Positions 45,231 through 64,000 are shown, numbered from the stretch's first letter. The stretch is 64,000 nt of DNA from Hydrogenophilales bacterium CG_4_10_14_3_um_filter_63_21 (GCA_002784045.1 PFJX01000113.1:2619-66618); one strand, 5' to 3'. The notes: a model not told the origin generated them from the sequence alone. Numbers and translations are program-made.

Positions 45231-45314
45231 TTAGCGGGCTGTCCGAATTTCCGTGGCCCTCTGTATGGCGTTTAGATGGGGAGTCTGGACGCTTACGGTT
45301 GAGCGGTAGGTGGT

Positions 45315-45364
45315 ATTCAACAATTCAACATTGTTCTTGACAACGAAAACTATAGGTATAAAAA
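45315..45364 (+). promoter_or_regulatory. Candidate promoter of the molybdoenzyme block
   Basis: AT-rich junction: 2 x 8-bp direct repeat attcaaca (45315-45330), TTGACA (45337-45342), 16 nt, TAAAAA (45359-45364). The -10 is weak. Confidence 0.3.
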
Positions 45365-45447
45365 GAGATTCATGTCTTTCTACCAAGCGTTTGTTTGAAT
45401 ACTTGATTGTGAGGCACTTTTTTTGTCCTTAACACGAGGAGAAACAA

Positions 45448-48381
45448 ATGAATCTGCTCGACAACAGCCTGACCCGGCGGGATTTCCTCAAGGTCACCGG
45501 GAGCGTCGCGGTCATGACGCAAATCCAGCCGGCGAGCGCCCAGGAATGGCTGTCGCAAGTTGGCAAAACAGGGTCGAAGGCCGATGTGGTCGGCACCGAC
45601 GCCAAGCTCGTGCGTAGCGTCTGTCTGATGTGCCATAGCGGTTGCGGCATCCAGGGCACGATCGTCAACGGCGAGCTGGTCAAGCTCGACGGCAACCCCT
45701 ATCACCCGAACACCTACGACTATGTGTCCAAGGGTGACCTCGTCGAGGAGAGCGATCTCGACGGCGGCATCGGCGGCAAGGATGTGGGCACGTTGTGCGC
45801 GAAGGGTCAGGCGGGCGTCTATGCCCTCTACAACGCCAACCGCCTCAAGCACCCGCTGAAGCGGGTCGGCCCGCGCGGCTCCGGCAAGTGGAAAACCATC
45901 TCCTGGGAACAGGCGATGACGGAAATCGCCGAGGGCGGGATGCTGTTCAAGGACGTGCCGGGTGAAGAGACCCGGGTGGTCGAGGGGCTCAAGTCCATCC
46001 TCAGCAACGACAAGCCCATCGGGCCCGAAGATTCCGACTTCATGGACGAGGCGCCGCCCGAAGGCTATGGCCCGAAACGCAACCAGTTTGTCTGGGCGCA
46101 CGGACGCAATGAGCAGTCGCCGCTGACCCCGCGTTTCGTCAAGGAAGCGGCCGGCGTGCCGCACATGCTCAACCACTGCGACCGCTGCTCCGGCACCCTC
46201 TACAACGTGATCGAGCATTGCCTGAACGTGCCGCCTTACGAGATCGGCGCCTATGCCGATTACGAATACTGTAGTTACCTGATCAGCGTGGGTTCCAACG
46301 TCACCCACGCCGACTACCCCGGCCAGACCCGTGCACGCTACCTGCAGAAGTTCGCCAAGCGCACGGGGCCTTACGCCAAGGAGTTCAAGCATGTGGTCGT
46401 CGATCCCTGGCTCTCGCCGGCGGCGGCCAAGGCCCTGCAGTCGGGCAAGGGCGAGTGGATCCCCCTCAAACCCGCCAGCGACGCCTTCTTCCTGATCGGC
46501 ATGAACCGCTGGATGATCGACAACAAGGCCTACAAGGCGGACTACCTGGCCCTACCCAACGAGCAGGCGGCGAAGAAGACCGGTCGCCGCAACTGGACCG
46601 ACATGACCTACCTGGTCAGGACTGTGGAGCCGAAGCTCTACCTCACCGGCAAGGATGCCGGGCTGGGCCAGTCCGACTACGTGGTGCTGGTGGGCGGCAA
46701 GCCGACCCTGTTCCACGATGTGGAAGGTGCGGCGGACCTGGATGCCGAGGTCGAAATCAAGGGCGTGGTGTACAAGACGGTGTTCCGCCTGCTGCGCGAG
46801 CGCAGCCACGAGAAGACCCTCGAGGAATGCGAGCAGGAATGCGACATTCCGCCCGGGACGATTGCCCATCTGGCTCGGGAGTTCGCCAATGCCAAGCACC
46901 CGGTCATCGAGTTTGCCCGCGGCCCCATCCAGCAGAGCAACGGTTGGTGGAACGGCCAGGCGCTCATCACCTTGAACATGATGGTCGACAACATCGACCG
47001 CAAGGGCGGCTATATCCCTGGCCACAAGGCTTACGGCGGGGACGTGAAAAATCCCGTCAAGCGCTCGGCGACAGGCGTGACGATCGATCGCCACAAGTCG
47101 AAGTATCAGGGCAAGAAGACGCTCTCCACCCGGCCCTGGTATCCGTTGGCCTCGCGCACGGTGACCAGCGAGTTTTTCTCCTCCCTGCGCCAGGGCTACC
47201 CCTATCGCATCAAGGCCTACCTCAACTACTACAACGACCCGGCCTACACGCAGCCGTTCAACACGCCGGTGATCGAGGCGTTGCTGAACCTGAAGGCCAT
47301 GCCGCTCACCTTCAGCATCGACGCCAACATGGGTGAGACCAGCCAGTTGTGCGATTACGTGTTGCCGGACTCGACTTACCTGGAGCGCATCGGCGGCTTC
47401 AAGACCTATCCACCGGTCAAGACGCGCGTCGCCGGCGTGCGGATGCCGATGGTGGGCACGCTGGACCCGGTAACGAAGAACTATCGCGGCCTCTATCCGG
47501 ATGTGCAGACCGGTGACGACACCCTGATCCAGCTCGCACTGCGCTGCGGTCTGCCCGGTTTCGGCAAGGACGCCGGTGGGCCGGGGGTGGATCTCTTCAA
47601 CTCCTGGCAGTTCTGGAACGAGTATTTCAAGAACGGCGACTACAAGGGCGAGCCGGGGCTGGATCCGGACAGCCGCCTGATCAAGTTGGGCGGCAAGTTC
47701 GAGAATCCGGGCAAGCAATATGATGCCGAAGGCGTATACACGCGTTTCCCGGGCAGCCGGCAGGTACGCGGCCTGATGGCCTACGCGTCGAACGTGGCGG
47801 CCAACAAGAACAGCATGACCGGCAAGTATTTCGACGGTCTGCCGACCTACCGCGCCATCATCGACTGCAAGGAACAGCCGCTCGATCCCGCCCTGTGGCA
47901 GGAATATCCGTTCCAATTGCATACCCACAAGGACGCCTGGCACACCCAGTCGCGCACCATGGACAACCTCTGGCTGGCCTCGATCAAGCCGCAGAATTTC
48001 GCGGAAATGAATCCGGCCGATGCACAGAGGCTGGACGTCATCACCGGCGACTGGGTCAAGGTGAAGTCGCCGTCTTCCAAGCACATCCCCTTCGTGGAAC
48101 TTTCGTTGGGCGATGGCTGGTTCAAGATGCAGGTGCGCGTCACCAGCCGCATCCGCCCGGGGGTTTTCTCGGTGAACCAGGGCTATGGGCGCTGGGGGGC
48201 CGGAGGCAGGAAGTGGGATGCGGACGGCAAGTCGCAGTTCTACGACAAGCGCATCGCTGCGGGTTTCAGCATCAATCCGCTGTACATGGCCGATCCCGTT
48301 TTGGGCGACCGCGTCATGTGCGATCCGGTGGCGGGTGGCACCCAGAGCAACGGGACCCCGTTGCGCGTGGAAAAAGTCTGA
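45448..48381 (+). CDS. Tat-exported molybdopterin (Mo-bisPGD) oxidoreductase catalytic subunit, TtrA-like
   Basis: 977 aa. Twin-arginine signal LTRRDFLKV...PASA and an N-terminal FeS motif CLMCHSGCG. DGNPYHPN, IGMNRWMIDNKAYKADYLALPN, QGYPYRIKAYL and DYVLPDSTYLE resemble Salmonella TtrA as I remember it. Confidence 0.75.
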   Translation: MNLLDNSLTRRDFLKVTGSVAVMTQIQPASAQEWLSQVGKTGSKADVVGTDAKLVRSVCLMCHSGCGIQGTIVNGELVKLDGNPYHPNTYDYVSKGDLVEESDLDGGIGGKDVGTLCAKGQAGVYALYNANRLKHPLKRVGPRGSGKWKTISWEQAMTEIAEGGMLFKDVPGEETRVVEGLKSILSNDKPIGPEDSDFMDEAPPEGYGPKRNQFVWAHGRNEQSPLTPRFVKEAAGVPHMLNHCDRCSGTLYNVIEHCLNVPPYEIGAYADYEYCSYLISVGSNVTHADYPGQTRARYLQKFAKRTGPYAKEFKHVVVDPWLSPAAAKALQSGKGEWIPLKPASDAFFLIGMNRWMIDNKAYKADYLALPNEQAAKKTGRRNWTDMTYLVRTVEPKLYLTGKDAGLGQSDYVVLVGGKPTLFHDVEGAADLDAEVEIKGVVYKTVFRLLRERSHEKTLEECEQECDIPPGTIAHLAREFANAKHPVIEFARGPIQQSNGWWNGQALITLNMMVDNIDRKGGYIPGHKAYGGDVKNPVKRSATGVTIDRHKSKYQGKKTLSTRPWYPLASRTVTSEFFSSLRQGYPYRIKAYLNYYNDPAYTQPFNTPVIEALLNLKAMPLTFSIDANMGETSQLCDYVLPDSTYLERIGGFKTYPPVKTRVAGVRMPMVGTLDPVTKNYRGLYPDVQTGDDTLIQLALRCGLPGFGKDAGGPGVDLFNSWQFWNEYFKNGDYKGEPGLDPDSRLIKLGGKFENPGKQYDAEGVYTRFPGSRQVRGLMAYASNVAANKNSMTGKYFDGLPTYRAIIDCKEQPLDPALWQEYPFQLHTHKDAWHTQSRTMDNLWLASIKPQNFAEMNPADAQRLDVITGDWVKVKSPSSKHIPFVELSLGDGWFKMQVRVTSRIRPGVFSVNQGYGRWGAGGRKWDADGKSQFYDKRIAAGFSINPLYMADPVLGDRVMCDPVAGGTQSNGTPLRVEKV

Positions 48382-48391
48382 GGAGACCGTC

Positions 48392-49009
48392 ATGACTGAA
48401 TACAGCCCCATACTCCCCCGCGAAGCCGTCGAGCGGTCGTTCGCCAAACAGGGTCCGAAGCAGTACACGCTCTGGGTGGACATCGAGCACTGCATCGGCT
48501 GCAACGCCTGCACCATTGCCTGCAAAGCGGAAAACAACACGCCTATCGGTGTGGATTACAACCGCGTCATCGAGATCGAGGAAGGCGACTTCCGCGATGC
48601 GAAGAAGAAACCCGACATCGGTGTGACCTTCGTGCCCATGCCCTGCATGCACTGCGGCCGGCCGGCCTGCCAGGCGGCCTGCCCGGTGGGGGCGATCACC
48701 AAGCGAGAAGACGGCATCGTCCTCATCAACAAGGACAAATGCATCGGTTGCCGCTACTGCGCCTGGGCCTGCCCATACGGCGCGCCCCAGTTCAACGCCG
48801 AGGCCAAGGTGATGGAGAAATGCACGCTTTGTGTCCATCGCGTCGAGAAGGGCCTGCAACCCGCCTGCGTGACGACCTGTCCGGCCAAGGTGAGGTTCTT
48901 CGGCGAGCTGAACGAGCTCACCCCGCTCATCCGCGAGCGTCGCGCGCGTAGCGTGAACATCGCCGTCGTCGGGACCGACACCAAGCCCAGCGTGCAATAC
49001 ACCAAGTAA
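48392..49009 (+). CDS. Four-cluster 4Fe-4S electron-transfer subunit (TtrB/PsrB/DmsB type)
   Basis: ORF 48185..49009 trimmed to ATG 48392 (GAGGAG upstream). Motifs CIGCNACTIACK, CMHCGRPACQAACP, CIGCRYCAWACP and CTLC...CVTTCP. Confidence 0.85.
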   Translation: MTEYSPILPREAVERSFAKQGPKQYTLWVDIEHCIGCNACTIACKAENNTPIGVDYNRVIEIEEGDFRDAKKKPDIGVTFVPMPCMHCGRPACQAACPVGAITKREDGIVLINKDKCIGCRYCAWACPYGAPQFNAEAKVMEKCTLCVHRVEKGLQPACVTTCPAKVRFFGELNELTPLIRERRARSVNIAVVGTDTKPSVQYTK

Positions 49010-49024
49010 GCACCAAGTAAGCAC
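48999..49024. repeat. 2.4 x 11-bp tandem repeat (caccaagtaag) spanning the FeS-subunit stop codon
   Basis: Copies at 48999-49009 and 49010-49020 plus a partial copy at 49021-49024. The TAA stop (49007-49009) lies in copy 1. Confidence 0.9.
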
Positions 49025-49182: not shown

Positions 49183-50370
49183 ATGAACAGCTTGATGGAA
49201 TTTCGCGATGAGGCGCCGGTGCGGGTGGAAAGCACGCTGTGCGCCCGTTTCCGCAGTACCAAGTCGAAGTGCGCGGCATGCGCCCTGGTGTGCCCCGTGC
49301 CCGGCGCCATCCACCTGGATGAGGATGGCGCGGAAGTCAAGGCAGCCTGCGTGGGCTGCGGCGCCTGTGCCTCGGCCTGCCCGAACGGCGCGATCCGACC
49401 GCGCCAGGAAGATGACATCCGGCTGGATGACGGGCGATTCACCGCGCGCATCCGTGAACGGGTTCGCGCCGGGGCGACGTTCCGTTTCGCCTGCGACATG
49501 GCGCAAGGCCAGGCGGATATGGTCTTGCCCTGTCTCTCCCGCCTGACCGAGGCACTGGTCCTGGAACCGCTCCGGGGAGGCGCTGAGCGGGTCGAGCTGA
49601 TGGCCCCGGACTGCGCGGCCTGCGGGCTCAGAAAGGCGGCCCCCCAGTGGCAGAAGGTCATGGATTTTTCCCGCGCGCTGTGCGAGACGGCGGGGCTGGA
49701 GGCGACTCGCGTGGAAAGCGTGCGGGTGCCCAGCGGGAAGGCGGTGGAAACGCGTCCTCCGGAAAAAGCCGGTGGCTCGCGCCGGGCGATGTTCCGCTCC
49801 ATGGCCGAGCGTTGGGAGGCGAGCGGAACGGCCCCGGACGCGACGGCCGAAGCTGCCGAGCCCACGCCTCCGGAAGCCTTCCGGGACATCGTGCAGCGGC
49901 ATTCGGACAACCCCAAGCGGGTCGCTCTGCTGGACGTGCTGGACGCGCTGCCCGGCGTGAAGCCCGTGCCGAGTGTGGCCACCTCGGTCGTCCTCGCCGA
50001 CGGAATACCGCTGGCGCAACTGGAGGTGGATCACCGCTGCGTGGGTTGCAGCGTGTGCGAAACGCTTTGTCCGGTTGGCGCCCTCAAACACCGGGACGAG
50101 GGCGAGACCTATGTGCTGGAGCTGGATGCCGCGCGCTGCACCGGTTGCCGCGTGTGCGAGGTGGTCTGCTATCACCAGGCCATCCATCTGCGCGATACGG
50201 TGGACCTCGCGCTGCTGTTCGAGCGTCCCCGCGTCACCCTGGTGTCCGCCACCAAGCGAACCTGTAGCGCCTGCCGCGAGCCATTCCTGGGCGCTGCCTC
50301 CGAATTCTGTCCTGCCTGCCGCTTGAGCGGCGATCGTCGTGAAACGATCGCCCGGCGCTTTTTCCTCTGA
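49183..50370 (+). CDS. Cytoplasmic polyferredoxin-like protein with C-terminal Cys4 motif
   Basis: 395 aa with no signal peptide. Motifs CAACALVCP, CVGCGACASACP, CVGCSVCETLCP and CTGCRVCEVVC, and a C-terminal CSAC...CPAC. The central region is low-complexity and Ala/Glu/Pro-rich. Confidence 0.7.
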   Translation: MNSLMEFRDEAPVRVESTLCARFRSTKSKCAACALVCPVPGAIHLDEDGAEVKAACVGCGACASACPNGAIRPRQEDDIRLDDGRFTARIRERVRAGATFRFACDMAQGQADMVLPCLSRLTEALVLEPLRGGAERVELMAPDCAACGLRKAAPQWQKVMDFSRALCETAGLEATRVESVRVPSGKAVETRPPEKAGGSRRAMFRSMAERWEASGTAPDATAEAAEPTPPEAFRDIVQRHSDNPKRVALLDVLDALPGVKPVPSVATSVVLADGIPLAQLEVDHRCVGCSVCETLCPVGALKHRDEGETYVLELDAARCTGCRVCEVVCYHQAIHLRDTVDLALLFERPRVTLVSATKRTCSACREPFLGAASEFCPACRLSGDRRETIARRFFL

Positions 50371-50380
50371 GGGAACCCGA

Positions 50381-51073
50381 ATGATGCCTGCCGAAGAAAT
50401 GCAAAACATCGCCGCCGGGCGCGCGCATACCTATTCCATCCTGGCCATGCTCTATGCCGCCCCGCCGACGGCGGAGTTGGCGGCCATGGTGCGCGCGGGC
50501 GGTCTCGCGCCGGAAGGGGGAAGCGCCCTGAGCGCGGCCGCCGACGCCCTGACGGAAGCCTTCCGCAACGACGCGGCGCAAGGGCTGCCCGACAGCGACC
50601 TGGTCGCCGAGCATACCCGGCTCTTCGTCCTGCCTTCCGGCGTGGTGCCCCATGAGTCTTATTACCTGGACGACAGCCATCGCCTGGGCGGGCACGCCAC
50701 CGTCGCTGTGCAGCGTTACTACGAGGCGGCGGGCACGCAAACGACCAGCACCTGCCTGGAGCTTGCGGATCACATGGGCGTGGAACTGGAGTTCATGAAG
50801 TTTCTTTGCGATATCGAGCGGCAGTTCTGGCAGGAGCCGAACCCGGAGGGTTTACAGCGCTGCCTGGACTTCCAGGCCGGTTTTCTCGACGGCCACCTGT
50901 TGCGCTGGCACAAAACCCTGTGCGAGCGGGTGCAGGGCGACACCAGCCTGGACATCTACCGCGCGCTGGCCCGCCTCACCCTGGAGTTCCTGGAAGCCGA
51001 GCGTACTTTTGTGCCTGATTTGACCGAGTCAATCCGTTCCGAATGGAGGACAGCATGCGTATCCGAATCGTGA
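50381..51073 (+). CDS. TorD/DmsD/NarJ-family redox enzyme maturation chaperone
   Basis: ORF 50339..51073; ATG 50381. EHTRLFV...HESYY...DHMGVELEFMKFL is typical of the TorD family. Confidence 0.75.
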   Translation: MMPAEEMQNIAAGRAHTYSILAMLYAAPPTAELAAMVRAGGLAPEGGSALSAAADALTEAFRNDAAQGLPDSDLVAEHTRLFVLPSGVVPHESYYLDDSHRLGGHATVAVQRYYEAAGTQTTSTCLELADHMGVELEFMKFLCDIERQFWQEPNPEGLQRCLDFQAGFLDGHLLRWHKTLCERVQGDTSLDIYRALARLTLEFLEAERTFVPDLTESIRSEWRTACVSES

Positions 51074-51618
51074 CCCTTTTGTCTTTGATGCTCGCCTCGA
51101 CGGCCGCTCTGGCCTTCGAAGCCCAGACCCCCGTGCCCTGGCCACCCAAGGCGGTTCCCAACCCGGAGAAGGGCGAGGTTCCCGATGCCAGAGCCGAGAA
51201 CAAGGTCTGCATGGGCTGCCACAAGAAAATCCTGTATGTGAAGACCGTGCGCGACAAGAAAAGGCCGAACCTGCACCGCCTGCACCTGACTTCCAAGAAA
51301 ACCGCCTTTGGCGGGGCGAACCTTTACTGCGCCACCTGCCACGAGACGGTTACTCCCGCGGAAGGCAAGGCGGCCAGGAAAGAAGGCTGGTTCATCCCCG
51401 CCAAGAGCGAAGTCCCGCATCCGGATGGGATGTTGGCCCCCGCCGGGGTCTGGAAAAAGACCGTCGTGCGCGCCGGGGAAGGCACCCGCTACGACCGTGT
51501 CGACACCCTGCTGCAATCCGATCCGCATCCCTTCAAGCCGACCCTCGGACGGCTGGTGTGCGCGGACTGCCATGGCCCGGAGAGCGGCATCAAGACGTTT
51601 TACGGCGCGCCCCAGTGA
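51043..51618 (+). CDS. Periplasmic trihaem c-type cytochrome
   Basis: 191 aa (or a start at ATG 51055, MRIRIVTLLSLMLASTAALA signal peptide). Three CxxCH motifs: CMGCH, CATCH and CADCH. Confidence 0.8.
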   Translation: MEDSMRIRIVTLLSLMLASTAALAFEAQTPVPWPPKAVPNPEKGEVPDARAENKVCMGCHKKILYVKTVRDKKRPNLHRLHLTSKKTAFGGANLYCATCHETVTPAEGKAARKEGWFIPAKSEVPHPDGMLAPAGVWKKTVVRAGEGTRYDRVDTLLQSDPHPFKPTLGRLVCADCHGPESGIKTFYGAPQ

Positions 51619-53468: not shown

Positions 53469-53825
53469 ATGAACAAGATCGCCCGCACCCTCATCCTGAT
53501 CGCCGGCATGGCGGCGGCCTTCGCCACCCCGCCGGCAGCGTGGTCCGAGGACATGCCTTACCTGAACGTCTTCACCGAGCGCCTGTGCACCCTGCGGCCG
53601 CCGCCGGTATTTGCCTTCCGGGCGGAGGCCACCGGCCTGACACCGCCCCTGAAATTCCACTGGGATCTCGGCAACGAACAAGTATGGGAAGGCCAGCATG
53701 TGCCGGAGCAGGCCTACGATTTCGGCCGCTACAACGTGATTCTGAGCGTGACGGATGCCACCGGGCGGACCCGGCGGGCGAGCCTGACGATCGACGCGAG
53801 TGCGCCCGGCTGCGGTGGAATTTGA
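53469..53825 (+). CDS. Secreted PKD-domain protein
   Basis: ORF 53091..53825 trimmed to ATG 53469 (MNKIARTLILIAGMAAAFA). PKD signature WDLGNEQ...YDFGRYNVILSVTDATGRT. Ends ...SAPGCGGI. Confidence 0.65.
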   Translation: MNKIARTLILIAGMAAAFATPPAAWSEDMPYLNVFTERLCTLRPPPVFAFRAEATGLTPPLKFHWDLGNEQVWEGQHVPEQAYDFGRYNVILSVTDATGRTRRASLTIDASAPGCGGI

Positions 53826-55802: not shown

Positions 55803-55904
55803 CGAAATGCCGTGCTTACGACGATCAAGGGCTGGGGAAATTCCGGTCGGCAGCGGCCGCGATGAAGCGGAAGTCGGACTTTGGGAAACACTTTGGAGAA
55901 GATC

Positions 55905-58298
55905 ATGATTGAGATGGAACTGACCAGAAGAACCTTTCTGAAGGTGGCCGGAGCCTCCGCCGCCGTCGCCGGACTGCCGCTCTCCAGCGGCGCCGAAGCT
56001 GCACCCGTCGCCACGACTTTCGGCGCCGCCGGCGCAGCGCCCGTGCCCGACCAGGTGGTGACTGCGGGCTGCCCGTTTTGCCAGAGCACCTGCAGCATGA
56101 AGGTGCATGTCCGCGAGGGCCGCATCGTGAATGTCTACGGCAATCCGGACGACCCGGTCACGGAAGGCAGGCTCTGCCCCAAGGGCCAGGCCAGCGTGGA
56201 TATGCTCTACAACAAGTATCGCCTCAAGTCGCCGCTGAAACGGGTGGGGCCGCGCGGCAAGCCGGAGTCCTATCAGGAGATCAGTTGGGATCAGGCGTTG
56301 ACGGAGATCGCCGACAAGCTCAAGGCCGTCAGTGTCAAACACGGGCCGGAGGCGCTGGCCTGGTGGGTGGGGGGCAGGAGCGAATCCCAGGCGCGCGCGG
56401 GGCTGACCGGCACGTTCCAGAAACTCTACGGCACGCCTCACCGCGAGGGCACCGGGCCGTTCTGCAACCTGGCCGGCACCACCGCATCGAATTCCATCCT
56501 GGGCCACAACAACCCGCCCTGGACCTACACCCGGGACGACTTCGGCGGCGCGGATTGGTACATGCTCGTCGGCGCCAACATGGCCGCCTGCAAAGTCGTG
56601 GCCTTCGGCAAGGTCAATGACCGGCGGGTCATGGGCAAGGCCAAAATCATCGCGGTGGACCCGCGCATGTCGGAAACCGCCGGCGCGGCCGATCTGTGGC
56701 TGCCGATCAAGCCTTCCACGGACATGGCGCTGGCCCTGGCGATGATGCATCACATCATCGAGAAGGACCTGCACAACAAGGCGTTCATCGAGAAGAAGGT
56801 GCTGGGCTTCGACAAGCTGAAGGCCTTCCTCGCCGAGAAGCAATACACCCCGGAATGGGCCGAGAAGGTCACCGGCATCCCGGCCGCGATCATCAAGGAG
56901 ATTTCGGAAGAATATGCCCGCACCGAGAAGGCGGTCATCATGGGCAATGCGGGCCTCTCCCATCACACCAACGGCCACATCACGCACCGCACCTTCCACA
57001 TGCTCGCCGCGATCACCGGCCATTACGGCAAGCCCTCCATGGGCTACGGTTGCGGCAATACCGGCGCGACGCCGATGGGCAGCATTTCGGTGCCGGAAGA
57101 CCGGGTGGTCAAACCCAAGCGGCAACGGCTGGGACGCTCGCCTGCCGCCTGGGTCGAGCCGATGATCACCGGCAAGCCCTATCCCATCAAGGCCTTCATC
57201 TCCACCAGCAATCCGCTGGTGCAGTGGGGGGATATCCAGCGCGCCATGACCGCCCTCGACAACCTGGATGTCTCCGTTTACTACAGCATGTTCCCCAGTA
57301 TCGAGACGCAGTATTTCGATTACATCCTGCCGGTATCGCCCTGGGCGGAGTCGGGCGGCGTGACGCCGGTGTCCGACGAGCGCCGCAACATCTTCGTGCC
57401 GCACATCATCCAGCCGCAGCACCAGGCCTGGCCGGAGCGCTGGATATTCATCGAACTGGGCAAGAAGATGGGCTGGGGCGACATCTTCAAGGACGAATAT
57501 AAGGACGCCATCGTGCTGCAACGGGCGATGGCCAAGAAGACCGGTTTTTCGCCCGAGCGTTTCCTCGCCAAGAAAGATGCCGCGCTGCGGGGGCCGCTGC
57601 CCAAGCCGGACTCGCCCGAGGTGGGCACCCTGTACACCGAAGCGCATGGCGTGCCCGGCAAGAAGGGGCAGTTTCCCCGGCCCTCGGGCAAGATCGAGAT
57701 CTGGACCGAGGTACTGGAGAAGATGTATGCGGCCCAGGGCATCAGCCCCCTGCCCGAGTTCTACGTGGATCCCGAGATCGGCATGAAAGACGGGCTGCCT
57801 TACCTGGAATATCTGGACTCCGATTCGGATGTCGGCATCACTTCGCTGATGAAGGGCATCGTCGCGGTCGGCAACATGCGGGCGCGGCGGGTCAAGATCA
57901 AGTACCCGGAAAAACCCGAACTGGCGGACTTCGACATGTACCTGACCTCCGGCCGTCCGAGTGCGGCGCACTTCGGCGACGGCACCCATTGGATACAAAG
58001 CCTCAACGACCAGGCCCCCGATCAGTTCTGCCTGATCCATCCCGACAAGGCCGCGCGCATCGGCGTGGTCACCGGCGACACGGTCAAGGTGGAAGGGCTC
58101 AAAGGCGCCGTGCTGGCCAAGGCATGGGTCTACGAGGGAATACGCAAGGACACGGTGTTCGTGCCCAACACCTATTCGGACCGGCAACCGTTCGCCCAGT
58201 GGAAGTCCCTGAACTTCATCGTCGACAAGGACAAGCGCTGTCCGGTCTCCGACCAGATCAACTACAAGGCGCTGGTCTGCAAGGTCACCAAGGCCTAG
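55905..58298 (+). CDS. Second Tat-exported Mo-bisPGD oxidoreductase catalytic subunit (Psr/Phs/Fdh-like clade, substrate unknown)
   Basis: ORF 55881..58298; ATG 55905 with GGAGA upstream. Twin-arginine signal LTRRTFLKVAGASAAVAG, FeS motif CPFCQSTC...C, and a candidate Cys Mo ligand in GTGPFCNLAG. Confidence 0.75.
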   Translation: MIEMELTRRTFLKVAGASAAVAGLPLSSGAEAAPVATTFGAAGAAPVPDQVVTAGCPFCQSTCSMKVHVREGRIVNVYGNPDDPVTEGRLCPKGQASVDMLYNKYRLKSPLKRVGPRGKPESYQEISWDQALTEIADKLKAVSVKHGPEALAWWVGGRSESQARAGLTGTFQKLYGTPHREGTGPFCNLAGTTASNSILGHNNPPWTYTRDDFGGADWYMLVGANMAACKVVAFGKVNDRRVMGKAKIIAVDPRMSETAGAADLWLPIKPSTDMALALAMMHHIIEKDLHNKAFIEKKVLGFDKLKAFLAEKQYTPEWAEKVTGIPAAIIKEISEEYARTEKAVIMGNAGLSHHTNGHITHRTFHMLAAITGHYGKPSMGYGCGNTGATPMGSISVPEDRVVKPKRQRLGRSPAAWVEPMITGKPYPIKAFISTSNPLVQWGDIQRAMTALDNLDVSVYYSMFPSIETQYFDYILPVSPWAESGGVTPVSDERRNIFVPHIIQPQHQAWPERWIFIELGKKMGWGDIFKDEYKDAIVLQRAMAKKTGFSPERFLAKKDAALRGPLPKPDSPEVGTLYTEAHGVPGKKGQFPRPSGKIEIWTEVLEKMYAAQGISPLPEFYVDPEIGMKDGLPYLEYLDSDSDVGITSLMKGIVAVGNMRARRVKIKYPEKPELADFDMYLTSGRPSAAHFGDGTHWIQSLNDQAPDQFCLIHPDKAARIGVVTGDTVKVEGLKGAVLAKAWVYEGIRKDTVFVPNTYSDRQPFAQWKSLNFIVDKDKRCPVSDQINYKALVCKVTKA

Positions 58299-58346: not shown

Positions 58347-58880
58347 ATGAGCCAGTTAGCGATTATGGTGGACCTGGAGCGCTGCATCGGATGCCGCTCC
58401 TGCGAAATCTCCTGCAAACTCGAAAACGGAGCCGAGAAGGCCCGGAACAAGATCATCCGGCTTGATCCCCGCGAGGGAAGCCGGCTGTCCTTCATGTTCA
58501 TGCCCTGCATGCATTGCGAAACCCCGGCCTGCAGCCAGGCCTGTCCCACCGGGGCCATCTTCAAGCGGGCCGAGGACGGGGTGGTGCTGATCGACGAGGG
58601 CAAGTGCATCGGCTGCCGCTATTGTTCGTGGGCCTGCCCCTACGGCGCCATGGGCTTCGACGCGGAACGGATGGTGGCCGACAAGTGCACCTACTGCGCC
58701 CATCGCCTTGCTCGCGGCGAGACGCCCTCCTGCGTCTCCAAGTGTCCGGGCCACGCGCTCAGTTTCGGTAAGGTCGATGCTCTCAGTGCCCAGGCAAAGT
58801 CGGAAGGACGCCAGATTCTCGACACCAATGCCGGTCGGACGAATCCCTCCACGTTCTATCTGGCGCGGCTGGGCAAGTAG
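58347..58880 (+). CDS. 4Fe-4S electron-transfer subunit of the second molybdoenzyme
   Basis: 177 aa with CIGCRSCEISCK, CMHCETPACSQACP, CIGCRYCSWACP and CTYC...CVSKCP. Confidence 0.85.
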   Translation: MSQLAIMVDLERCIGCRSCEISCKLENGAEKARNKIIRLDPREGSRLSFMFMPCMHCETPACSQACPTGAIFKRAEDGVVLIDEGKCIGCRYCSWACPYGAMGFDAERMVADKCTYCAHRLARGETPSCVSKCPGHALSFGKVDALSAQAKSEGRQILDTNAGRTNPSTFYLARLGK

Positions 58881-58941: not shown

Positions 58942-59550
58942 ATGCCCGGTAGTTTCGATGCGCCGTCGGACCCGTTGTGGTCCGACCTTTACGCCCAGTT
59001 GAGCGAGTTCTTCAAGGAGCCCTCTCCGGGCTTCGTGGAGGACGTCGCCTCCGGCCGGCTGGCCCGGTTCTTCGAGGAGCGGCGCGGGTTGTTGGGGCTC
59101 GACACCACCCTGATCACAGGCCTCGCGCCGGACGGGGAAGCACTGGGAGAGGAATACCGGCGGCTCTTCACCGGCCCGATGCCCCCCTACATCGTGCCGG
59201 TCGAGAGCGTGTACAAGCGTTGGGCGAATTCACCCGATTGCCAGTTGCCGATCGCCCTGGAAAAGGGCTACCTGATGGGAGACCCCGCCCTGGACATGCT
59301 GCGGCGTTATCGGGATCGCGGCATGGAGGTGCCGGATGCCTTCTCCTCCATGCCCGACCACCTCGCCCTCGAACTGGAATACCTGGCGTTCCTGGCTAGC
59401 CAGGGTGACGACCCGGCGTGTAGGGAATTTCTGTCCAGCCACCTGGATTGGCTGGGCGACCTGGTGCGCGACATCGAGAACGCGGGTGGAGGTGGTTTTT
59501 ATCTCTCCGGCGCCCGGATTGCCCGCGATATTGTCAAGTCGGCTCTGTAA
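58942..59550 (+). CDS. Second TorD-family maturation chaperone
   Basis: ORF 58708..59550 trimmed to ATG 58942. EEYRRLFTGP...VESVY...PDHLALELEYLAFL is typical of the TorD family. Confidence 0.7.
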   Translation: MPGSFDAPSDPLWSDLYAQLSEFFKEPSPGFVEDVASGRLARFFEERRGLLGLDTTLITGLAPDGEALGEEYRRLFTGPMPPYIVPVESVYKRWANSPDCQLPIALEKGYLMGDPALDMLRRYRDRGMEVPDAFSSMPDHLALELEYLAFLASQGDDPACREFLSSHLDWLGDLVRDIENAGGGGFYLSGARIARDIVKSAL

Positions 59551-59574
59551 TGAAGACCTAACGAGGAACACACC

Positions 59575-61971
59575 ATGACGAAGATATTTCTGGTCGAGTT
59601 CTCCCTGCGCCGTCCCAAGCTGGTACTCCTGCTGGCGGCGCTGCTCACCCTGGTGTTCCTCAGCCAGTTTCCCAAGATGCGCACGGACACCAACCCGAAG
59701 CACATGCTGCCCGATACCTCGGACGTGCGGGTGTGGAACGACAAGGTGGACAAGACCTTCGCCCTCTACGAGGACACCATCGTCGTCGGCGTGGAGAATG
59801 AAGTGAGCGCCGCCGGGGTGCTCAACCCCGATACCCTGGGCCGCCTGGCGCGCATCACCGATGCCATCCTGCTGCTGGACGGGGTGGCCTCCCGCGACGT
59901 CAACGGCTTCACCACCATCACCAACGTCACCGCCGAGGCCGGCACCCTGAAGGTGGGGCCGCTGATGCCGGCGGCGCCCAAGACTGCGGCCGAGGCGAAG
60001 GCGTTCGAGCGAACCTTGTTCGGCAATCCGCTGTTCGTCGACCGGATCATCTCCAAAGACGGCAAGACCACCGCCCTCTACGTGCCGCTGGAAAAGGGCG
60101 CCAACGGCGCCGAGATCGCGGAAAAGCTCCGCGTGATCGTGGCGAAGGAGCCGGGGCCGGAGCGCTACTACATCGCCGGCGACCCGGTGGCGCGCGATAC
60201 CTTCGGCGCCGAGATGTTCAAGCTCATGGCCATCTTCTCGCCCATCGCCGGCGCCATCATGTTCATCGCCATCCAGCTCATGTTCCGCAACCTGGCGCTG
60301 TCGGCCACCATGATGGGGGTGTCGATGGTGGCGATCATCTGGAGCATGGGCCTCTTGATCGGCGTGGGCTTCCCGGTGCACATCATGAGTTCCATGGCGC
60401 CGGTCTTCCTCATGGCCATCGCCACCGACAGCATCCATATCTTCAACGAGTTCTATTTCCGTTACCGGGAACGGCGTGGAGACCAGGACGCCAAGCTGAC
60501 GGCGATCCGCGAGACCATGGCGGCGGTGAACCGCCCGGTGCGTTACACGGCGCTGGCCACGGCGGCGGGTTTTGCCGTGATGTTGTTCATGAACATCATC
60601 CCGGTCCAGGTGTTCGGCGGCCTGATCGCCTTCGGCACCATCGTCCTGCGCCTGTTGTCCTTCAGCTTCATCCCGGCGGTGCTCACCTTCGTGAGCGAGG
60701 ACAAGCTCAAGGCCGCGGCCGAGGGCGCGGCGCGCGACCGCCTGGGGCCGGCATTGGGCCGGCTCGGGGCCTTCGGCGCGGCGCGTCCGGGCCTCACGGT
60801 GGCGGCGGTGCTGGTGCTGGCGGCGATCTCGGTCTGGGGCATGTCGAAGATCCACATCAACAACAACCTGGTCTCCTGGTTCAAGGCGGACAGCGAGATC
60901 CGCGTCGCCGACACGGCGATGAACGCGGCGCTGGGCGGCACCTCGCTGGGCTATCTGGTGGTCGAATCCATAGAGCCCCCCCCGAAGTCGCTGCTTCGCG
61001 GCGACCTCCCCCCAGGGGGCGAAGAAACTCTTGGGGCGGCCCGGCGAGTTTCTTCAGCGCCGGAGTTCATGAAAGACCCGGCGGCGATGCGCTGGATCGA
61101 AGGCCTGCAACGCCACCTGGAGGCATCAAAGGTGGTTGGCAAGACCTTCTCGGTGGCCGATTACGTGAAGCGCATCAACCGCGTGCTGCACGAGGACGAT
61201 GCCAAGTTCGATGCCGTGCCGGACACCAAGGACAGCGTCGGCCAATACCTGTTCCTGTTCAGCATGTCGGCCAAGCCTTCCGACCTCGACAACGTCGTCG
61301 ATCCGACCTTCACCAAGGCCAACGTCTGGGTGCAGATGAAGACCTGGGACGCCGACGCCATGCGCCAGGTGATCGCCGCCACGGCGGCCTATCAGACGGC
61401 GCATCCCCTGCCGGTGACGGTGAAGCCGGCCGGCATCGCCTACTTCAACCTGGTGTGGAACGAGGAAGTGCTGGGCGACCTGGTGCTCGGCTTCAGCCTC
61501 GCCCTGGCGGTGGTGTTCGTCATCCTGGCGCTCGACTTCCGCTCGCTGAAATGGGCACTGGTCGCTTATACGCCGCTGCTCTTCACCATCCTGCTGATCT
61601 ACGGCGTGGTGGGTTTCGTCGGCAAGGATTTCGACATGCCGCTGTCGGTGATGAGCACCCTGTCCTTAGGCATGGCGGTGGACTTCGCCATCCACTTCGT
61701 TAGTCGCTTCCGGCAGCGGCGCGAGGAAGAAGGCGCCCGTGAAACGGTGGCGGAAAGCCTGGCCTGGACGGCGGCGCGCCCCGGCAAGGGCATCATGCGC
61801 AACGCGCTGCTGTTCGCGGCGGCCTTCTCGGTGATGATGGCCGCGCCGCTGACGCCCTACATGGCGGTGGGCGCCTTCATCGTCGCCATGATGCTGCTCT
61901 CGGCCCTGTTCACCCTGCTGCTGCTGCCGGCGCTGGTGATGCTGGGGCGGCGCTGGCTGGCCGTGGAATAA
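59575..61971 (+). CDS. RND-superfamily exporter of the MMPL/HpnN-like (COG1033) type
   Basis: 798 aa. Two blocks each of one TM plus a large periplasmic loop plus five TMs. Typical of 12-TM RND proteins lacking AcrB-size loops. Confidence 0.75.
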   Translation: MTKIFLVEFSLRRPKLVLLLAALLTLVFLSQFPKMRTDTNPKHMLPDTSDVRVWNDKVDKTFALYEDTIVVGVENEVSAAGVLNPDTLGRLARITDAILLLDGVASRDVNGFTTITNVTAEAGTLKVGPLMPAAPKTAAEAKAFERTLFGNPLFVDRIISKDGKTTALYVPLEKGANGAEIAEKLRVIVAKEPGPERYYIAGDPVARDTFGAEMFKLMAIFSPIAGAIMFIAIQLMFRNLALSATMMGVSMVAIIWSMGLLIGVGFPVHIMSSMAPVFLMAIATDSIHIFNEFYFRYRERRGDQDAKLTAIRETMAAVNRPVRYTALATAAGFAVMLFMNIIPVQVFGGLIAFGTIVLRLLSFSFIPAVLTFVSEDKLKAAAEGAARDRLGPALGRLGAFGAARPGLTVAAVLVLAAISVWGMSKIHINNNLVSWFKADSEIRVADTAMNAALGGTSLGYLVVESIEPPPKSLLRGDLPPGGEETLGAARRVSSAPEFMKDPAAMRWIEGLQRHLEASKVVGKTFSVADYVKRINRVLHEDDAKFDAVPDTKDSVGQYLFLFSMSAKPSDLDNVVDPTFTKANVWVQMKTWDADAMRQVIAATAAYQTAHPLPVTVKPAGIAYFNLVWNEEVLGDLVLGFSLALAVVFVILALDFRSLKWALVAYTPLLFTILLIYGVVGFVGKDFDMPLSVMSTLSLGMAVDFAIHFVSRFRQRREEEGARETVAESLAWTAARPGKGIMRNALLFAAAFSVMMAAPLTPYMAVGAFIVAMMLLSALFTLLLLPALVMLGRRWLAVE

Positions 61972-61987
61972 AGGCCGGCAGTAAGGG

Positions 61988-62098
61988 TGTAGGGTGCGCC
62001 GTGCGCACCGCTTGCCGCTGGCTGGTGCGCACGGCGCAGCGGAGTCGTTGCGCTTTAGCGCTTACGAATCCGGCGTGCTCCTTGCGGGCGCACCCTAC
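61988..62098. repeat. GTAG-headed REP doublet
   Basis: tgtagggtgcgccgtgcgcaccg (61988-62010), an internal ggtgcgcacggcgca, and a terminal gcgcaccctac (62088-62098). It lies between the RND gene and the LolA-like gene. Confidence 0.7.
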
Positions 62099-62140
62099 GG
62101 AATCAATGGGTTGTATTGTGTTTCTGATAAGGAGATGGAC

Positions 62141-62929
62141 ATGAAACGATGGTCAGTCTTGCTCGCGGCTTTGCTCTTGCCGATTCCCGCCCTGGCGCTC
62201 ACTGGTGAGGAGGCGATGAAGAAGTCCCAGGCGGCGTTCCTCTACCCCGGCAAAGACTTCAAGGCCCGTGTGCTCATGAAGCTCATCAACAGGGACGGCC
62301 AGGAGCGGGTGCGCGAGTTGACCATGCTGCGCCGGAACGTGGGCGCGCCGGGCGGCGAGCAGAAATACTTCATGGTTTTCTTCAAGCCGAACGACGTGAA
62401 GGACATGAGCTTCATGACCTACAAATACCCGGCGAAGGACGATGACCGCTGGATGTTCATCCCGGCGGTGAACATGGTCAAACGCATCGCCGCGCAGGAC
62501 AAGCGCTCCAGTTTCGTCGGCTCGGACTTCACCTACGAGGATGTCTCGGGCCGCGACATCGAGGACGACAGCCACGCCATCGAACGCGAGGAGAAGGTGG
62601 GCGGCCGCGACTGCTACGTGGTGAAGAGCACGCCCAAGACTGGTGACGCCGATTTCGGCCACAAGCTCACCTGGGTGGACAAGGCGAATTTCCTGCCGCT
62701 GAAGGAGGAGCAGTACGACCGCAAGGGCGCCCGCTACAAGGAGTTCAGCGCCGACGAGGTGGCCGAGGTCAAAGGCTTCCCCACCGTGGTCCGGCGCACC
62801 ATGAAGAACCTGCAAACCGGCCACCGCACCGAGGTCGGCTACAGCAAGACCGACTACAACCTCGGCATCGACGACAGCCTGTTCTCCGAGCGCTTCCTGC
62901 GCCAGCCGCCACGCAAATGGGTGGACTGA
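62141..62929 (+). CDS. LolA-like outer-membrane lipoprotein-sorting family protein
   Basis: ORF 61994..62929 trimmed to ATG 62141 (MKRWSVLLAALLLPIPALA). FVGSDFTYEDV is typical of the LolA_like family as I remember it. Confidence 0.65.
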   Translation: MKRWSVLLAALLLPIPALALTGEEAMKKSQAAFLYPGKDFKARVLMKLINRDGQERVRELTMLRRNVGAPGGEQKYFMVFFKPNDVKDMSFMTYKYPAKDDDRWMFIPAVNMVKRIAAQDKRSSFVGSDFTYEDVSGRDIEDDSHAIEREEKVGGRDCYVVKSTPKTGDADFGHKLTWVDKANFLPLKEEQYDRKGARYKEFSADEVAEVKGFPTVVRRTMKNLQTGHRTEVGYSKTDYNLGIDDSLFSERFLRQPPRKWVD

Positions 62930-64000
62930 TGCGAAGTTCGACGCTGCTCTTCTGCCTACTCGCGGCGCTGCCGATGGCCGCGCGGGCCGAGGTGGCGTTT
63001 TCGGGTTTTGTGCAGCAGAACACGGCGTTCAACAGCGACGGCGCCAATCCGGACGGGCGCCACTACAAGTGGTTGGAGGAGCGGGCGCGCCTTCAGGTGG
63101 ATGCCACGAAAGACGCCTGGCACCTGCTGGCGAAGGGGGATGTGGCCTACGATCATCTCGGTCGGCAGGGGGAGTCCGAGCTGCGCGAGGGCTACGTCGA
63201 TTACACCGCCGACGGCTGGGACCTGCGCATCGGCCGGCAGGTCATCACCTGGGGCCTGGGCGATCTGGTCTTCGTCAACGATGTCTTCCCCAAGGATCAC
63301 GAAGCGCTGTTCGCCGGCCGGCCGCTGGAATACCTGAAACGCGGGGTCGACGCCGTGAAGCTCGGCGCCTACCCGGAATTCGCCTCCTTCGAACTCGTGC
63401 TGGCGCCGGATTTCCGCGAGAGCCGCATCCCGGACGCGGGCCGTTTCCACCTCTTCGGCCCCCCGCCGACGGCGACGGAAAAGCCCGGGCAGGGCGAGTG
63501 GAGCCTGCGCGCCTACCGGGACGTGGCCGGCTGGGATGCCGCGCTCTATCTGCACCACGGCTTCCAGCGCACCCCGTCCATGCGGCCGAATCCGAACACG
63601 TTCTTTTATCCGGAACTGTCCATCTACGGCGCCAGCCTGTCCGGCCGCGCCGGCGAGGGGGTGCTCAGCCTGGAGGCCGCGTATTACGATTCCCGCCAGG
63701 ATCGCGCCGGCAGCGATTTCACAGTGCCCAATTCCCAGACACGCTTGCTCGCCGCCTGGCAAACCCAGCCCTGGGAAGACTTCACCCTCAACCTCCAGTA
63801 TTACGCGGAGCACATGCACGACTACGCCGCCTACCGCGCCGCGTTGCCGGCGGGGTTCCCGGTCGAGGCGCGCTGGAGCCCTACCCTGGGTTTCCGCGCC
63901 ACCCAGTTCTTCCTGCATCAGACCTTGCGCCTGTCGGTCTATGCGTCACAGAACACCAGCAACGGGGACACTTTCCTCAATCCCGAATTGCGCTACAGCT
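62929..64000 (+). CDS. Outer-membrane beta-barrel protein (DUF1302-like?), C-terminally truncated by the window edge
   Basis: Absent from the ORF track because the end is open. Hand translation from ATG 62929 (TGATG overlap) gives MRSSTLLFCLLAALPMAARAEVAFSGFVQQNTAFNSDGANPDGRHYKWLEERARLQVDATKDAWHLLAKGDVAYDHLGRQGESELREGYVDYTADGWDLRIGRQVITWG.... There are no stops to position 64000. Confidence 0.6.
   Translation, partial: MRSSTLLFCLLAALPMAARAEVAFSGFVQQNTAFNSDGANPDGRHYKWLEERARLQVDATKDAWHLLAKGDVAYDHLGRQGESELREGYVDYTADGWDLRIGRQVITWGLGDLVFVNDVFPKDHEALFAGRPLEYLKRGVDAVKLGAYPEFASFELVLAPDFRESRIPDAGRFHLFGPPPTATEKPGQGEWSLRAYRDVAGWDAALYLHHGFQRTPSMRPNPNTFFYPELSIYGASLSGRAGEGVLSLEAAYYDSRQDRAGSDFTVPNSQTRLLAAWQTQPWEDFTLNLQYYAEHMHDYAAYRAALPAGFPVEARWSPTLGFRATQFFLHQTLRLSVYASQNTSNGDTFLNPELRYS

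Follow-up and report, generated by a model that had tools for sequence, protein, structure and literature searches.

A 64,000-nucleotide stretch of DNA from Hydrogenophilales bacterium CG_4_10_14_3_um_filter_63_21 (PFJX01000113.1:2619-66618), called the window below and numbered from its first letter, ends in a block of 15 consecutive plus-strand genes that begins at position 45448 and is cut by the window edge. The first eight genes encode Mo1, a catalytic subunit of the dimethyl sulfoxide (DMSO) reductase superfamily, together with an iron-sulfur (FeS) partner, a polyferredoxin, a chaperone, a cytochrome, an outer-membrane barrel and two PKD-domain proteins. These eight genes form a core that recurs in other genomes and is the main subject of this analysis.

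Mo1 (45448..48381, plus strand, 977 aa) belongs to the catalytic subunits that carry molybdenum bis(pyranopterin guanine dinucleotide) (Mo-bisPGD) and has Molybdop_Fe4S4, Molybdopterin and Molydop_binding domains. It combines a twin-arginine translocation (Tat) signal, with the motif TRRDFLK, and the CxxCxxxC motif of an FS0 cluster. The adjoining FeS1 (48392..49009, plus) is a four-cluster ferredoxin subunit of the DmsB/TtrB type, which lacks a signal peptide and is presumably co-exported with Mo1. Next come a cytoplasmic polyferredoxin of 395 aa (49183..50370, plus) and TorD1 (50381..51073, plus), a Tat-proofreading chaperone of the TorD/NarJ family for Mo1. The polyferredoxin has about four 4Fe-4S motifs, a weakly MvhD/FlpD-like middle part, a C-terminal CxxC...CxxC and no signal peptide. 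Because it is always encoded beside the TorD gene, even in a Gram-positive-like variant locus (L088/L089), the simplest reading is that it is a maturation factor, probably with a NapF-like role. The sequences strongly imply that TorD1 and the polyferredoxin take part in the cytoplasmic maturation of Mo1 and FeS1, which then leave by the Tat pathway.

The second half of the core encodes proteins of the periplasm and the outer membrane. A periplasmic trihaem c-type cytochrome (51043..51618, plus; three CXXCH motifs, Sec signal) is the electron partner in proteobacterial loci. OMP1 (51655..53466, plus), which is kept in all complete loci, is an outer-membrane beta-barrel of the Alginate_exp (AlgE-like) family (E 2.8e-10) with an N-terminal stretch of about 120 residues that is rich in Ala, Glu, Arg and Gln and looks coiled-coil-like by eye. 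A small secreted PKD-like protein of 118 aa (53469..53825, plus), ending in GCGGI, follows; neither this protein nor OMP1 had an informative match among the PDB sequences. The core closes with a periplasmic protein (53853..54803, plus) composed of a FecR-like domain, a helical linker and a PKD domain, and having a C-terminal C-x-C (here CGC) directly after the last strand.

Relatives were collected by scanning one genome per GTDB species, and their gene order was determined by tblastn with the window proteins. The core has the fixed order Mo1-FeS1-polyferredoxin-TorD1-(cytochrome)-OMP1-(small PKD)-FecR/PKD and is syntenic in 57 loci. As these loci are independent and agree in gene order, the block is more than a product of chance. 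A reverse search of metagenome contigs, starting from the FecR/PKD protein, yielded 40 loci, and the Mo1 core was found in every one with enough upstream DNA. Conservation of the block in other genomes, which the first-pass annotation of this DNA had put forward as a check, is thus established for the core from both directions. The small PKD protein is facultative (35 of the 57 loci), and its C-terminal cysteine, within a GC(G/A)xI ending, occurs only in betaproteobacteria.

The Mo1 family is tight, with identities of 63-93%; outside it, identity drops to about 41% or less. Its hosts are found in about ten phyla and include Rhodocyclales (Sulfuritalea, Sulfurisoma), Rhodoferax, Muproteobacteria, Sedimenticola, Planctomycetota, Methylomirabilota/Rokubacteria, Nitrospirota/Thermodesulfovibrionia, Armatimonadota, Desulfobacterota and Lindowbacteria. 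Two cultured isolates carry the locus, Sedimenticola selenatireducens DSM 17993 (contig NZ_KE386614.1, ~105.9-128.9 kb) and S. hydrogenitrophicus SB48.

None of the curated NCBIfam equivalog cut-offs was reached by Mo1 or by Mo2, the second catalytic subunit of the block. The best model for Mo1 is that of TtrA (NF011567), with 339 bits against a cut-off of 1750; the PhsA and ArrA models gave 184 bits (cut-off 694) and 79 bits (cut-off 1600). The closest PDB sequence is Thermus PsrA for both Mo1 and Mo2. Relatives about 35% identical to Mo1 scored 324-630 bits with the TtrA model, three of the six tested being clearly above the 339 bits of Mo1 and three about equal to it. Because these relatives score as high or higher, Mo1 is placed at the distant end of the TtrA lineage. 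Published phylogenies unite TtrA, the selenate reductase SrdA and the alternative arsenate reductase in one Cys-ligated lineage and mention an unnamed sister lineage from metagenome-assembled genomes (PMC7331816, PMC10100899). The characterised members of this lineage act on sulfur, selenium and arsenic (PMC7331816).

Upon profile alignment, Cys247 of Mo1 lies opposite the molybdenum-ligand cysteine of ArrA, within the active-site motif N-H243-C244-D-R246-C247-S-G-T. The motif N-H-C-(D/S)-R-C-(A/S)-G-T-(F/L)-Y-N is common to all 13 aligned family sequences (the window Mo1 and 12 database relatives), whereas the TtrA-like relatives at about 35% identity mostly have D-H-T-S-I-C-E-T-S-H-H at the same site. 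The Mo1 family has an extra cysteine ahead of the ligand, giving CxxC, and a new arginine, and it has neither the glutamate nor the His-His pair; its active site is thus remodelled. It is strongly implied by these alignments that Mo1 is a Cys-ligated enzyme of the tetrathionate/selenate (Srd)/alternative-arsenate reductase lineage.

The FecR/PKD protein has a Sec signal peptide and lacks both a transmembrane segment and an anti-sigma part. Its C-terminus has the form ...[IL]S[VA]E-x-x-C-x-C in 30 of 30 sequences across phyla (28 loci, the window and a duplicate contig). Upon alignment of a further 25 sequences, C314 and C316 were found to be the sole invariant cysteines. An AlphaFold2 (AF2) model based on 25 sequences, with a predicted local distance difference test score (pLDDT) of 78, consists of a FecR/PupR-like beta-sandwich domain, a linker and a PKD domain. 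Foldseek matched it to 4m0h and 6ovk, which are FecR/PupR-type periplasmic signalling domains (E ~1e-6). The model thus points to a docking domain of the kind that binds outer-membrane proteins. Three loci (L096, L097 and L102) have a second FecR/PKD paralogue, 62-65% identical, 1-2 kb downstream of the first, and in two of the three an inverted FadL gene adjoins.

The electron-transfer partner of Mo1 differs between lineages. Modules were counted over the 57 loci with a complete core; as the flanks were at most 10 kb, all such counts are lower bounds. The trihaem cytochrome is present in 36 loci and a module containing an NrfD-type membrane subunit in 19; no locus has both, and two have neither. 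A c554-type tetrahaem cytochrome occurs in 24. In the NrfD-bearing loci, which belong to Nitrospirota, Desulfobacterota and Methylomirabilota, Mo1 is preceded by genes for a tetrahaem cytochrome, an FeS protein of 307 aa and NrfD in a B-C-A order like that of ttrBCA/srdBCA, and the cytochrome between TorD1 and OMP1 is a dihaem protein of about 315 aa. This gene content strongly implies that Mo1 exchanges electrons with the soluble trihaem cytochrome c in the window genome, and that in the three NrfD-bearing phyla it uses the tetrahaem cytochrome-FeS-NrfD quinone module instead.

It had been proposed from the window alone that the system has no NrfD-type anchor and is coupled to cytochrome c rather than to quinones. 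This holds for the window, where the transporter described below is the only block protein with membrane helices apart from signal peptides, and for the lineage to which the window belongs. It does not hold for the 19 loci with an NrfD quinone module, which excludes the trihaem cytochrome. The further description as an envelope-spanning redox system, if taken to mean that electrons cross the outer membrane, found no support: three haems are all that the cytochrome has, and the barrel resembles AlgE, not MtrB. An extracellular electron conduit was rejected on these two grounds.

The remaining seven genes of the block are accessory. The gene at 54831..55802 (plus) encodes MoaA, the GTP 3',8-cyclase (TIGR02666, 348 bits, above the equivalog cut-off of 284), which catalyses the first step of molybdenum cofactor synthesis. 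It is followed by Mo2 (55905..58298, plus), a Tat-exported, Psr/Phs/Fdh-like Mo-bisPGD catalytic subunit of 797 aa with a TAT_signal match and a single cysteine-ligand motif, GPFCNLAG. Mo2 scored 285 bits with the PhsA model (cut-off 694), 279 bits with the Fdh-alpha model (cut-off 666) and 144 bits with the ArrA model (cut-off 1600); its match to Thermus PsrA has 195 bits. It has its own four-cluster ferredoxin subunit, FeS2 (58347..58880, plus), and its own TorD-family chaperone, TorD2 (58942..59550, plus). More distant relatives of Mo2 (P0158-P0214, 36-42% identity), also uncharacterised, occur in Burkholderiales, Alpha- and Gammaproteobacteria. They are proteins of about 980 aa with Fer4 and molybdopterin domains in one chain, the ferredoxin part being N-terminal in P0158, the one that was scanned.

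The last three genes encode a putative export system. The first product is an RND (resistance-nodulation-division) transporter, probably of the HAE3/MMPL type (59575..61971, plus), the sole integral inner-membrane protein of the block. It matches Pfam MMPL at 117 bits, above the cut-off, and TIGR00921 (HAE3) at 166 bits, below the cut-off of 352. The second is a LolA-like, TP_0789-like periplasmic protein of 262 aa (62141..62929, plus; PF17131, 210 bits). The third, OMP2 (62929..64000, plus), is a small outer-membrane barrel with weak similarity to Wzi and DUF1302 (E 4e-4 for DUF1302, below the gathering score); it is cut by the window edge and has 396 aa on longer contigs.

These accessory genes are facultative partners of the core. 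Within the flanks, moaA was found in 16 of the 57 loci, Mo2 in 11 and any gene of the RND module in 17; in L087, too, a Mo2 homologue of 73% identity comes directly after the core. The modules lie on either side of the core and on either strand: they precede it in inverted orientation in Sedimenticola and in the same direction in Nitrospirota, and in the window they lie downstream. Their recurrence in varied positions across phyla suggests a functional linkage rather than chance. The block had been treated as one system. That its genes co-occur in other genomes is borne out, and FadL, as well as moaA and the Mo2 and RND modules, recurs beside the core in varied positions and orientations. However, only the eight-gene core is a conserved unit, and the window is a maximal concatenation of this core with facultative modules.

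Other combinations of molybdoenzyme genes were also seen. Seven loci (L010, L035, L044, L110, L111, L118 and L121) have further, unrelated DMSO-reductase-family gene pairs, 24-31% identical to Mo1 or Mo2, less than 10 kb from the core, and the locus often lies within a "molybdoenzyme island". The variant metagenome contigs L088/L089 lack the outer-membrane genes. They encode a binding protein of PF12974, a kinase and a regulator of the GerE type, an FeS protein, NrfD and a 756-aa molybdoenzyme, as well as a Mo2 homologue of 58% identity, further FeS, TorD and polyferredoxin proteins, and proteins with Cu_amine_oxidN1 domains. They probably represent a Gram-positive version of a related two-enzyme system.

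The limits of the block can be defined closely. A strong bidirectional intrinsic terminator at 44953..44980, with a stem of 12-13 bp, six GC pairs and T-runs on both strands, closes the upstream operon and marks the 5' boundary. It is followed on the plus strand by a non-coding promoter and leader region of low GC content (44981..45447) with the ribosome-binding site GAGGAG at 45437. The first-pass annotation started the block at 45231, where no plus-strand gene begins, and counted 17 genes in the window; 15 are present, the other two lying beyond the edge. The prediction that the block continues past the edge was correct. On longer metagenome contigs with an identical RND protein and locus, two more co-directional genes follow, encoding a FadL/Toluene_X protein (449 aa) and an unknown protein of 291 aa, after which the strand changes. 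The gaps given earlier (10, overlap, 36, 2, 27, 27, 102, 48, 61, 24, 169 and overlap) were reproduced exactly, counted from the junction between the polyferredoxin and TorD1. All components that had been named were recovered in place, that is, two molybdoenzyme modules, each with an FeS subunit and a TorD chaperone, moaA, the multihaem cytochrome, two barrels, the PKD proteins and the RND exporter; the cytoplasmic polyferredoxin had gone unnamed. Gene presence was judged by tblastn because ORF (open reading frame) calling chose antisense ORFs in this GC-rich DNA. Two such minus-strand ORFs, at 43567-44847 (426 aa) and 54873-58187 (1104 aa), lie over real plus-strand genes and are high-GC artefacts, not genes.

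Few signals were detected within the block. No intrinsic terminator inside it scored above chance, a sigma-70 promoter scan remained at chance level, and a search for sigma-54 promoter patterns upstream of Mo1 in the window and 25 relatives gave nothing consistent. An Rfam search of 43000-64000 matched only a tRNA and no molybdenum-cofactor riboswitch. The 169-nucleotide spacer between the RND and LolA-like genes, described earlier as filled with repetitive extragenic palindromic (REP) elements, does contain nested GC-rich inverted repeats (61989..62098), with perfect arms of 15 nucleotides lying within perfect arms of 12 nucleotides. This palindrome occurs once in the window, and the REP assignment was rejected as stated.

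The absence of a regulator, also remarked upon earlier, is real for the window and peculiar to this copy of the locus. Most of the related loci have regulatory genes. Relatives encode a PF12974 (PhnD-type) periplasmic binding protein (26 of the 57 loci), an sCache/HAMP histidine kinase (25) and an NtrC-type sigma-54 regulator (23), which are divergent from Mo1 in betaproteobacteria. A second type of regulator, an ArsR-rhodanese fusion, occurs in nine loci. Betaproteobacterial loci (L007-L016, L033, L045, L049 and L071) also have a GTTAC-N6-GTAAC palindrome, probably an operator, some 70-95 nucleotides upstream of Mo1. None of these genes was found in the window, and its leader (44981-45447) has neither the palindrome nor the divergent sensor genes. 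An 80-aa ORF of the minus strand (44988-45230; ...AKAQVAMAALKGDKALAELAQ...) lies where the relatives carry their regulator genes. Its likeness to OrfA of IS3-family elements is unproven: Pfam gave no match, and tblastn against plasmids gave one weak, unannotated match.

The regulators of the relatives offer clues to the substrate. Among PDB sequences the PF12974 binding protein matches phosphite-binding PtxB best (89 bits), followed by arsenate-binding ArrX (81 bits) and AioX (34 bits), and the same fold senses tetrathionate in TtrS and thiosulfate in ThsS (PMC5408782), suggesting that a small oxyanion is sensed. The DNA-binding half of the ArsR-rhodanese regulator is free of cysteines, and those of the ELCVCDL type are missing; the cysteines of CRGPHC in the rhodanese loop are the only ones of the protein. 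Persulfide-type sensing therefore fits this regulator better than sensing of As(III).

Directly upstream of the block in the window is a plus-strand sulfur-relay operon (43717-44934) of a rhodanese (43717-44043), TusA (44155-44382) and a DsrE2-type protein (44419-44934), ended by the terminator described above. This rhd-tusA-dsrE2 order is known from sulfur oxidisers using reverse Dsr. A further DsrE-like gene lies at 40102-40581 on the minus strand. Sulfur-relay genes also neighbour the core elsewhere, in arrangements unrelated to this one: DsrE and a DedA-rhodanese fusion are encoded beside the Sedimenticola locus, and a cysteine-desulfurase-like gene lies beside the Rhodoferax locus and L087. 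Between ispB (42277-43245, minus) and the rhodanese operon is a tRNA gene (43296-43368, minus; Rfam, 72 bits), a possible integration landmark of the island. The upstream region differs in genomic context from that of the closest relative (L007, 93% Mo1 identity), which is consistent with a relocated island. Still further upstream, an extracytoplasmic function (ECF) sigma factor (40741-41286, plus) is followed by an overlapping 243-aa ORF without a Pfam match (region 40741-42014); this is possibly its anti-sigma factor, and the pair is apparently unrelated to the block.

Taken together, the core is best read as a periplasmic molybdoenzyme system that is conserved and undescribed and that is bound to an outer-membrane channel and to a partner protein tipped with cysteines, a reading to which we assign a probability of roughly 0.8. 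That the system is undescribed, as first suggested from the window, is in agreement with the failure of both catalytic subunits to reach any equivalog cut-off; literature searches found no paper on the cluster. The parts belong to known superfamilies. What is apparently undescribed in the literature found is the way they are combined, the motif of the active site, and the obligatory presence of the channel and the C-x-C protein.

The localisation, the type of cofactor, the set of partners and the conservation follow from the comparisons above; for the substrate, the role of a carrier and the direction of the reaction the following is proposed. The block would be a respiratory gene island that moves horizontally, and at its centre would stand an uncharacterised complex iron-sulfur molybdoenzyme of the periplasm. 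Its substrate would be a thiol-reactive chalcogen, most likely sulfane or chain sulfur (polysulfide, polythionate or thiosulfate-derived sulfur), with selenium a close second. The range suggested earlier, namely polythionate, polysulfide or elemental sulfur, or a metalloid, is retained as the right one. The chalcogen species would pass through the dedicated channel OMP1, where the FecR/PKD protein would be docked and would hold it on its C-x-C tip, much as SoxY and Sud serve as cysteine carriers. The Mo/CxxC site of Mo1 would then oxidise or reduce it. Electrons would flow to the cytochrome c pool in the window's sulfur-oxidising betaproteobacterium, and to or from menaquinone in the NrfD-bearing lineages. 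Oxidation appears the likelier direction because the host is a cytochrome-coupled, sulfur-oxidising betaproteobacterium. Mo2 and FeS2 may perform a related second step. The RND/LolA/barrel set, which is similar to the Ame exporter, and FadL, likewise a protein for hydrophobic molecules, might move an apolar product or substrate, such as S8 or a Se0-like form, across the envelope.

This chain as a whole, from a thiol-reactive chalcogen carried on the C-x-C, through its transformation at Mo1, to accessory export, is tentative and is given slightly less than an even chance. Its most specific form is improbable; here the island would be a trans-envelope pathway for a zero-valent or chain chalcogen, with an AlgE-like channel, a FecR/PKD carrier docked below it and holding the chalcogen covalently on the C-x-C, a CxxC molybdenum enzyme that would be a new kind within the DMSO reductase family, and an Ame-like and FadL shuttle carrying the hydrophobic elemental form across the outer membrane. 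Several observations weigh against the chain. Beyond a Cys-ligated molybdoenzyme of the periplasm that is partnered by a cytochrome or by NrfD, each step is inferred. C-x-C motifs also bind As(III), as in ArsR, and Cu(I), as in CCS. A PtxB/ArrX-like oxyanion sensor fits selenite, arsenate or phosphite equally with thiosulfate. The AF2 model of Mo1, computed from a 14-sequence alignment, had a pLDDT of 39.5 and is unusable for the geometry of the CxxC site or of the funnel. The adjacency of rhd-tusA-dsrE2 could be incidental, as relatives sit in other genomic contexts, and Mo2 (11 of 57 loci) and the RND module (17 of 57 within the flanks) may serve other functions. Finally, the family is rare, with about 60 Mo1 clusters and 246 FecR/PKD clusters among 5.8 billion proteins, and its patchy distribution resembles that of metalloid-respiration islands and would be odd for mainstream sulfur metabolism.

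The alternative that survives best, unlikely as it is, would be an ordinary reductase of a soluble substrate, that is, a divergent tetrathionate, thiosulfate or selenate reductase. The barrel and the FecR/PKD protein would then serve uptake or cell-surface signalling, and moaA, Mo2, RND and FadL would belong to neighbouring operons of the island. The TtrA model is indeed the best for Mo1, but the active-site motif is sharply unlike that of the TtrA-like relatives. The classical role of FecR-like domains is in signalling, through contact with outer-membrane proteins, but the one found here, behind a signal peptide, has no transmembrane or anti-sigma part. The accessory modules are absent within the flanks from most loci, but their recurrence in several phyla and in varied orientation would not be expected of random adjacency. 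The B-C-A order of the NrfD-bearing loci and the PF12974 sensors known for tetrathionate and thiosulfate are as this alternative would have them. Against these stands the fact that Mo1 is absolutely accompanied by the barrel and the C-x-C protein, in fixed order and across phyla. A role of Mo1 as the selenate reductase of Sedimenticola was considered less likely, since that genome already has a serABDC-like cluster.

An improbable alternative is that the system handles a metalloid, with Mo1 as a new arsenite or antimonite oxidase or an arsenate or antimonate reductase, the C-x-C protein as an As(III)/Sb(III) chaperone, and regulation by an Aio/Arx-like X-S-R system and ArsR. C-x-C is the As(III)-binding motif of ArsR, and ArsR-family regulators do adjoin the core; however, the fusion with rhodanese lacks the ELCVCDL-type cysteines. 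The triad of binding protein, kinase and sigma-54 regulator shares both architecture and divergent orientation with aioXSR/arxXSR, and ArrX is the second-best PDB match of the binding protein. The lineage of Mo1 includes the alternative arsenate reductase, but the ArrA hidden Markov model (HMM) gave far less than its cut-off, and the substrate-contact Ser/Lys positions of ArrA align with Cys/Tyr in Mo1. The patchy groundwater distribution, of the type left by horizontal gene transfer, is typical of arr/arx islands; nevertheless, no ars, acr3 or arsM gene was found among the annotated neighbours. S. selenatireducens AK4OH1, which carries the Mo1 locus, does not respire arsenate and has no arr homologue; its genome paper describes ser-, clr-, pcr-, nar- and nap-type clusters and does not mention the locus (PMC5052931).

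That the system transforms an apolar organic compound anaerobically within the periplasm, by an ethylbenzene-dehydrogenase-like hydroxylation with uptake by FadL and tolerance through the Ame-like RND set, is highly improbable: FadL/Toluene_X and the HAE3 RND/LolA-like/DUF1302-like genes in or beside the block, the link of AmeABCD to monoterpene metabolism (PMC6394551) and hosts from lineages with anaerobic aromatic or hydrocarbon degradation (Rhodocyclales, Sedimenticola, Desulfobacula) would suit it, but Mo1 and Mo2 fall outside the Asp-ligated type II clade (the EbdA HMM matches the FS0 region only), there is no haem-b gamma subunit, the sensor is an oxyanion-type binding protein, no downstream catabolic genes occur in any locus inspected, and FadL and RND are facultative.

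Complex iron-sulfur molybdoenzymes drive much of the anaerobic cycling of sulfur, selenium, arsenic and nitrogen, and each newly characterised clade has added a biogeochemical reaction. With identities of 63-93%, the Mo1 clade has spread across ten phyla or more and is common in aquifer and deep-subsurface metagenomes. To our knowledge, no other family of the DMSO reductase superfamily is obligatorily linked to an outer-membrane channel of its own and to a periplasmic protein tipped with cysteines. If the carrier model is true, the long-standing question of how the envelope of Gram-negative bacteria handles insoluble elemental sulfur or selenium becomes directly testable, and the two cultured Sedimenticola hosts give access to genetics and biochemistry. 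A trans-envelope chalcogen pathway, if it exists, would be a molecular answer to the question of how bacteria mobilise or dispose of insoluble S0 and Se0.

Each part of the island can be compared with a known system. Neither Mo1 nor Mo2 is an ArrA/ArxA-type catalytic subunit of Arr/Arx by its score with the ArrA model (79 and 144 bits against 1600). The binding protein, histidine kinase and sigma-54 NtrC-type regulator of the relatives are similar to those of aioXSR/arxXSR and TtrSR/ThsSR; however, the sensor genes are absent from the window, and the binding protein of the relatives matches PtxB and ArrX more closely than AioX. In common with MtrAB/DmsEF, a periplasmic multihaem cytochrome gene adjoins a barrel gene and a DMSO-reductase-family enzyme, but the cytochrome has three haems (two in other phyla) instead of ten, and the barrel is of the Alginate_exp/AlgE type instead of resembling MtrB or DmsF. 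Whereas FecR anti-sigma regulators have a cytoplasmic anti-sigma domain and a transmembrane helix, the window protein has a periplasmic FecR-like domain behind a cleavable signal peptide.

The AmeABCD system of Castellaniella defragrans exports apolar monoterpenes (PMC6394551). It has an HAE3-family RND pump, a LolA-superfamily periplasmic protein and a DUF1302-type outer-membrane protein (PMC6394551), a trio that the RND, LolA-like and barrel genes of the window resemble. The window set has no homologue of AmeC (Ycf48/BNR-like), its LolA-like protein belongs to PF17131 (262 aa) instead of DUF1329 (451 aa), and its barrel is shorter (396 versus 605 aa) and matches DUF1302 weakly.

The FecR/PKD protein resembles SoxYZ in having an Ig-like beta-sandwich with a reactive cysteine near the C-terminus, after the last strand. 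The two PKD proteins of the window end in ...ISVEADCGC and ...PGCGGI, and SoxY ends in ...VTIGGCGG. This analogy is limited to the position of the C-terminal cysteine: there is no SoxY match in Pfam and no SoxY among the Foldseek matches. Moreover, the FecR/PKD protein has two cysteines instead of one and is fused to FecR, and its partner is a DMSO-reductase-family enzyme, not SoxXA, SoxB or SoxCD. In the PsrABC/PhsABC systems, such as that of Wolinella, Sud is a periplasmic cysteine protein that delivers polysulfide sulfur to the Psr molybdenum enzyme. Mo2 is Psr/Phs-like, with Thermus PsrA as its best PDB match, but it is below the PhsA equivalog score and has no NrfD anchor, and the candidate carrier is the FecR/PKD protein instead of a rhodanese.

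A further comparison is with TtrABC/SrdBCA. Like the catalytic subunits of these systems, Mo1 is large (about 1000 aa), is exported by Tat, contains Mo-bisPGD with a cysteine ligand and an FS0 cluster, and is paired with a four-cluster FeS protein; the TtrA model gives its highest score, the NrfD-bearing relatives have the B-C-A order, and a PF12974-type sensor is associated. It differs in falling below the TtrA equivalog score and in having HCxRC in place of HTSICE..SHH, and the window genome has a cytochrome c in place of the NrfD/TtrC-type membrane subunit. The Mo1 system is further set apart by its obligatory outer-membrane barrel, its FecR/PKD C-x-C protein and its cytoplasmic polyferredoxin.

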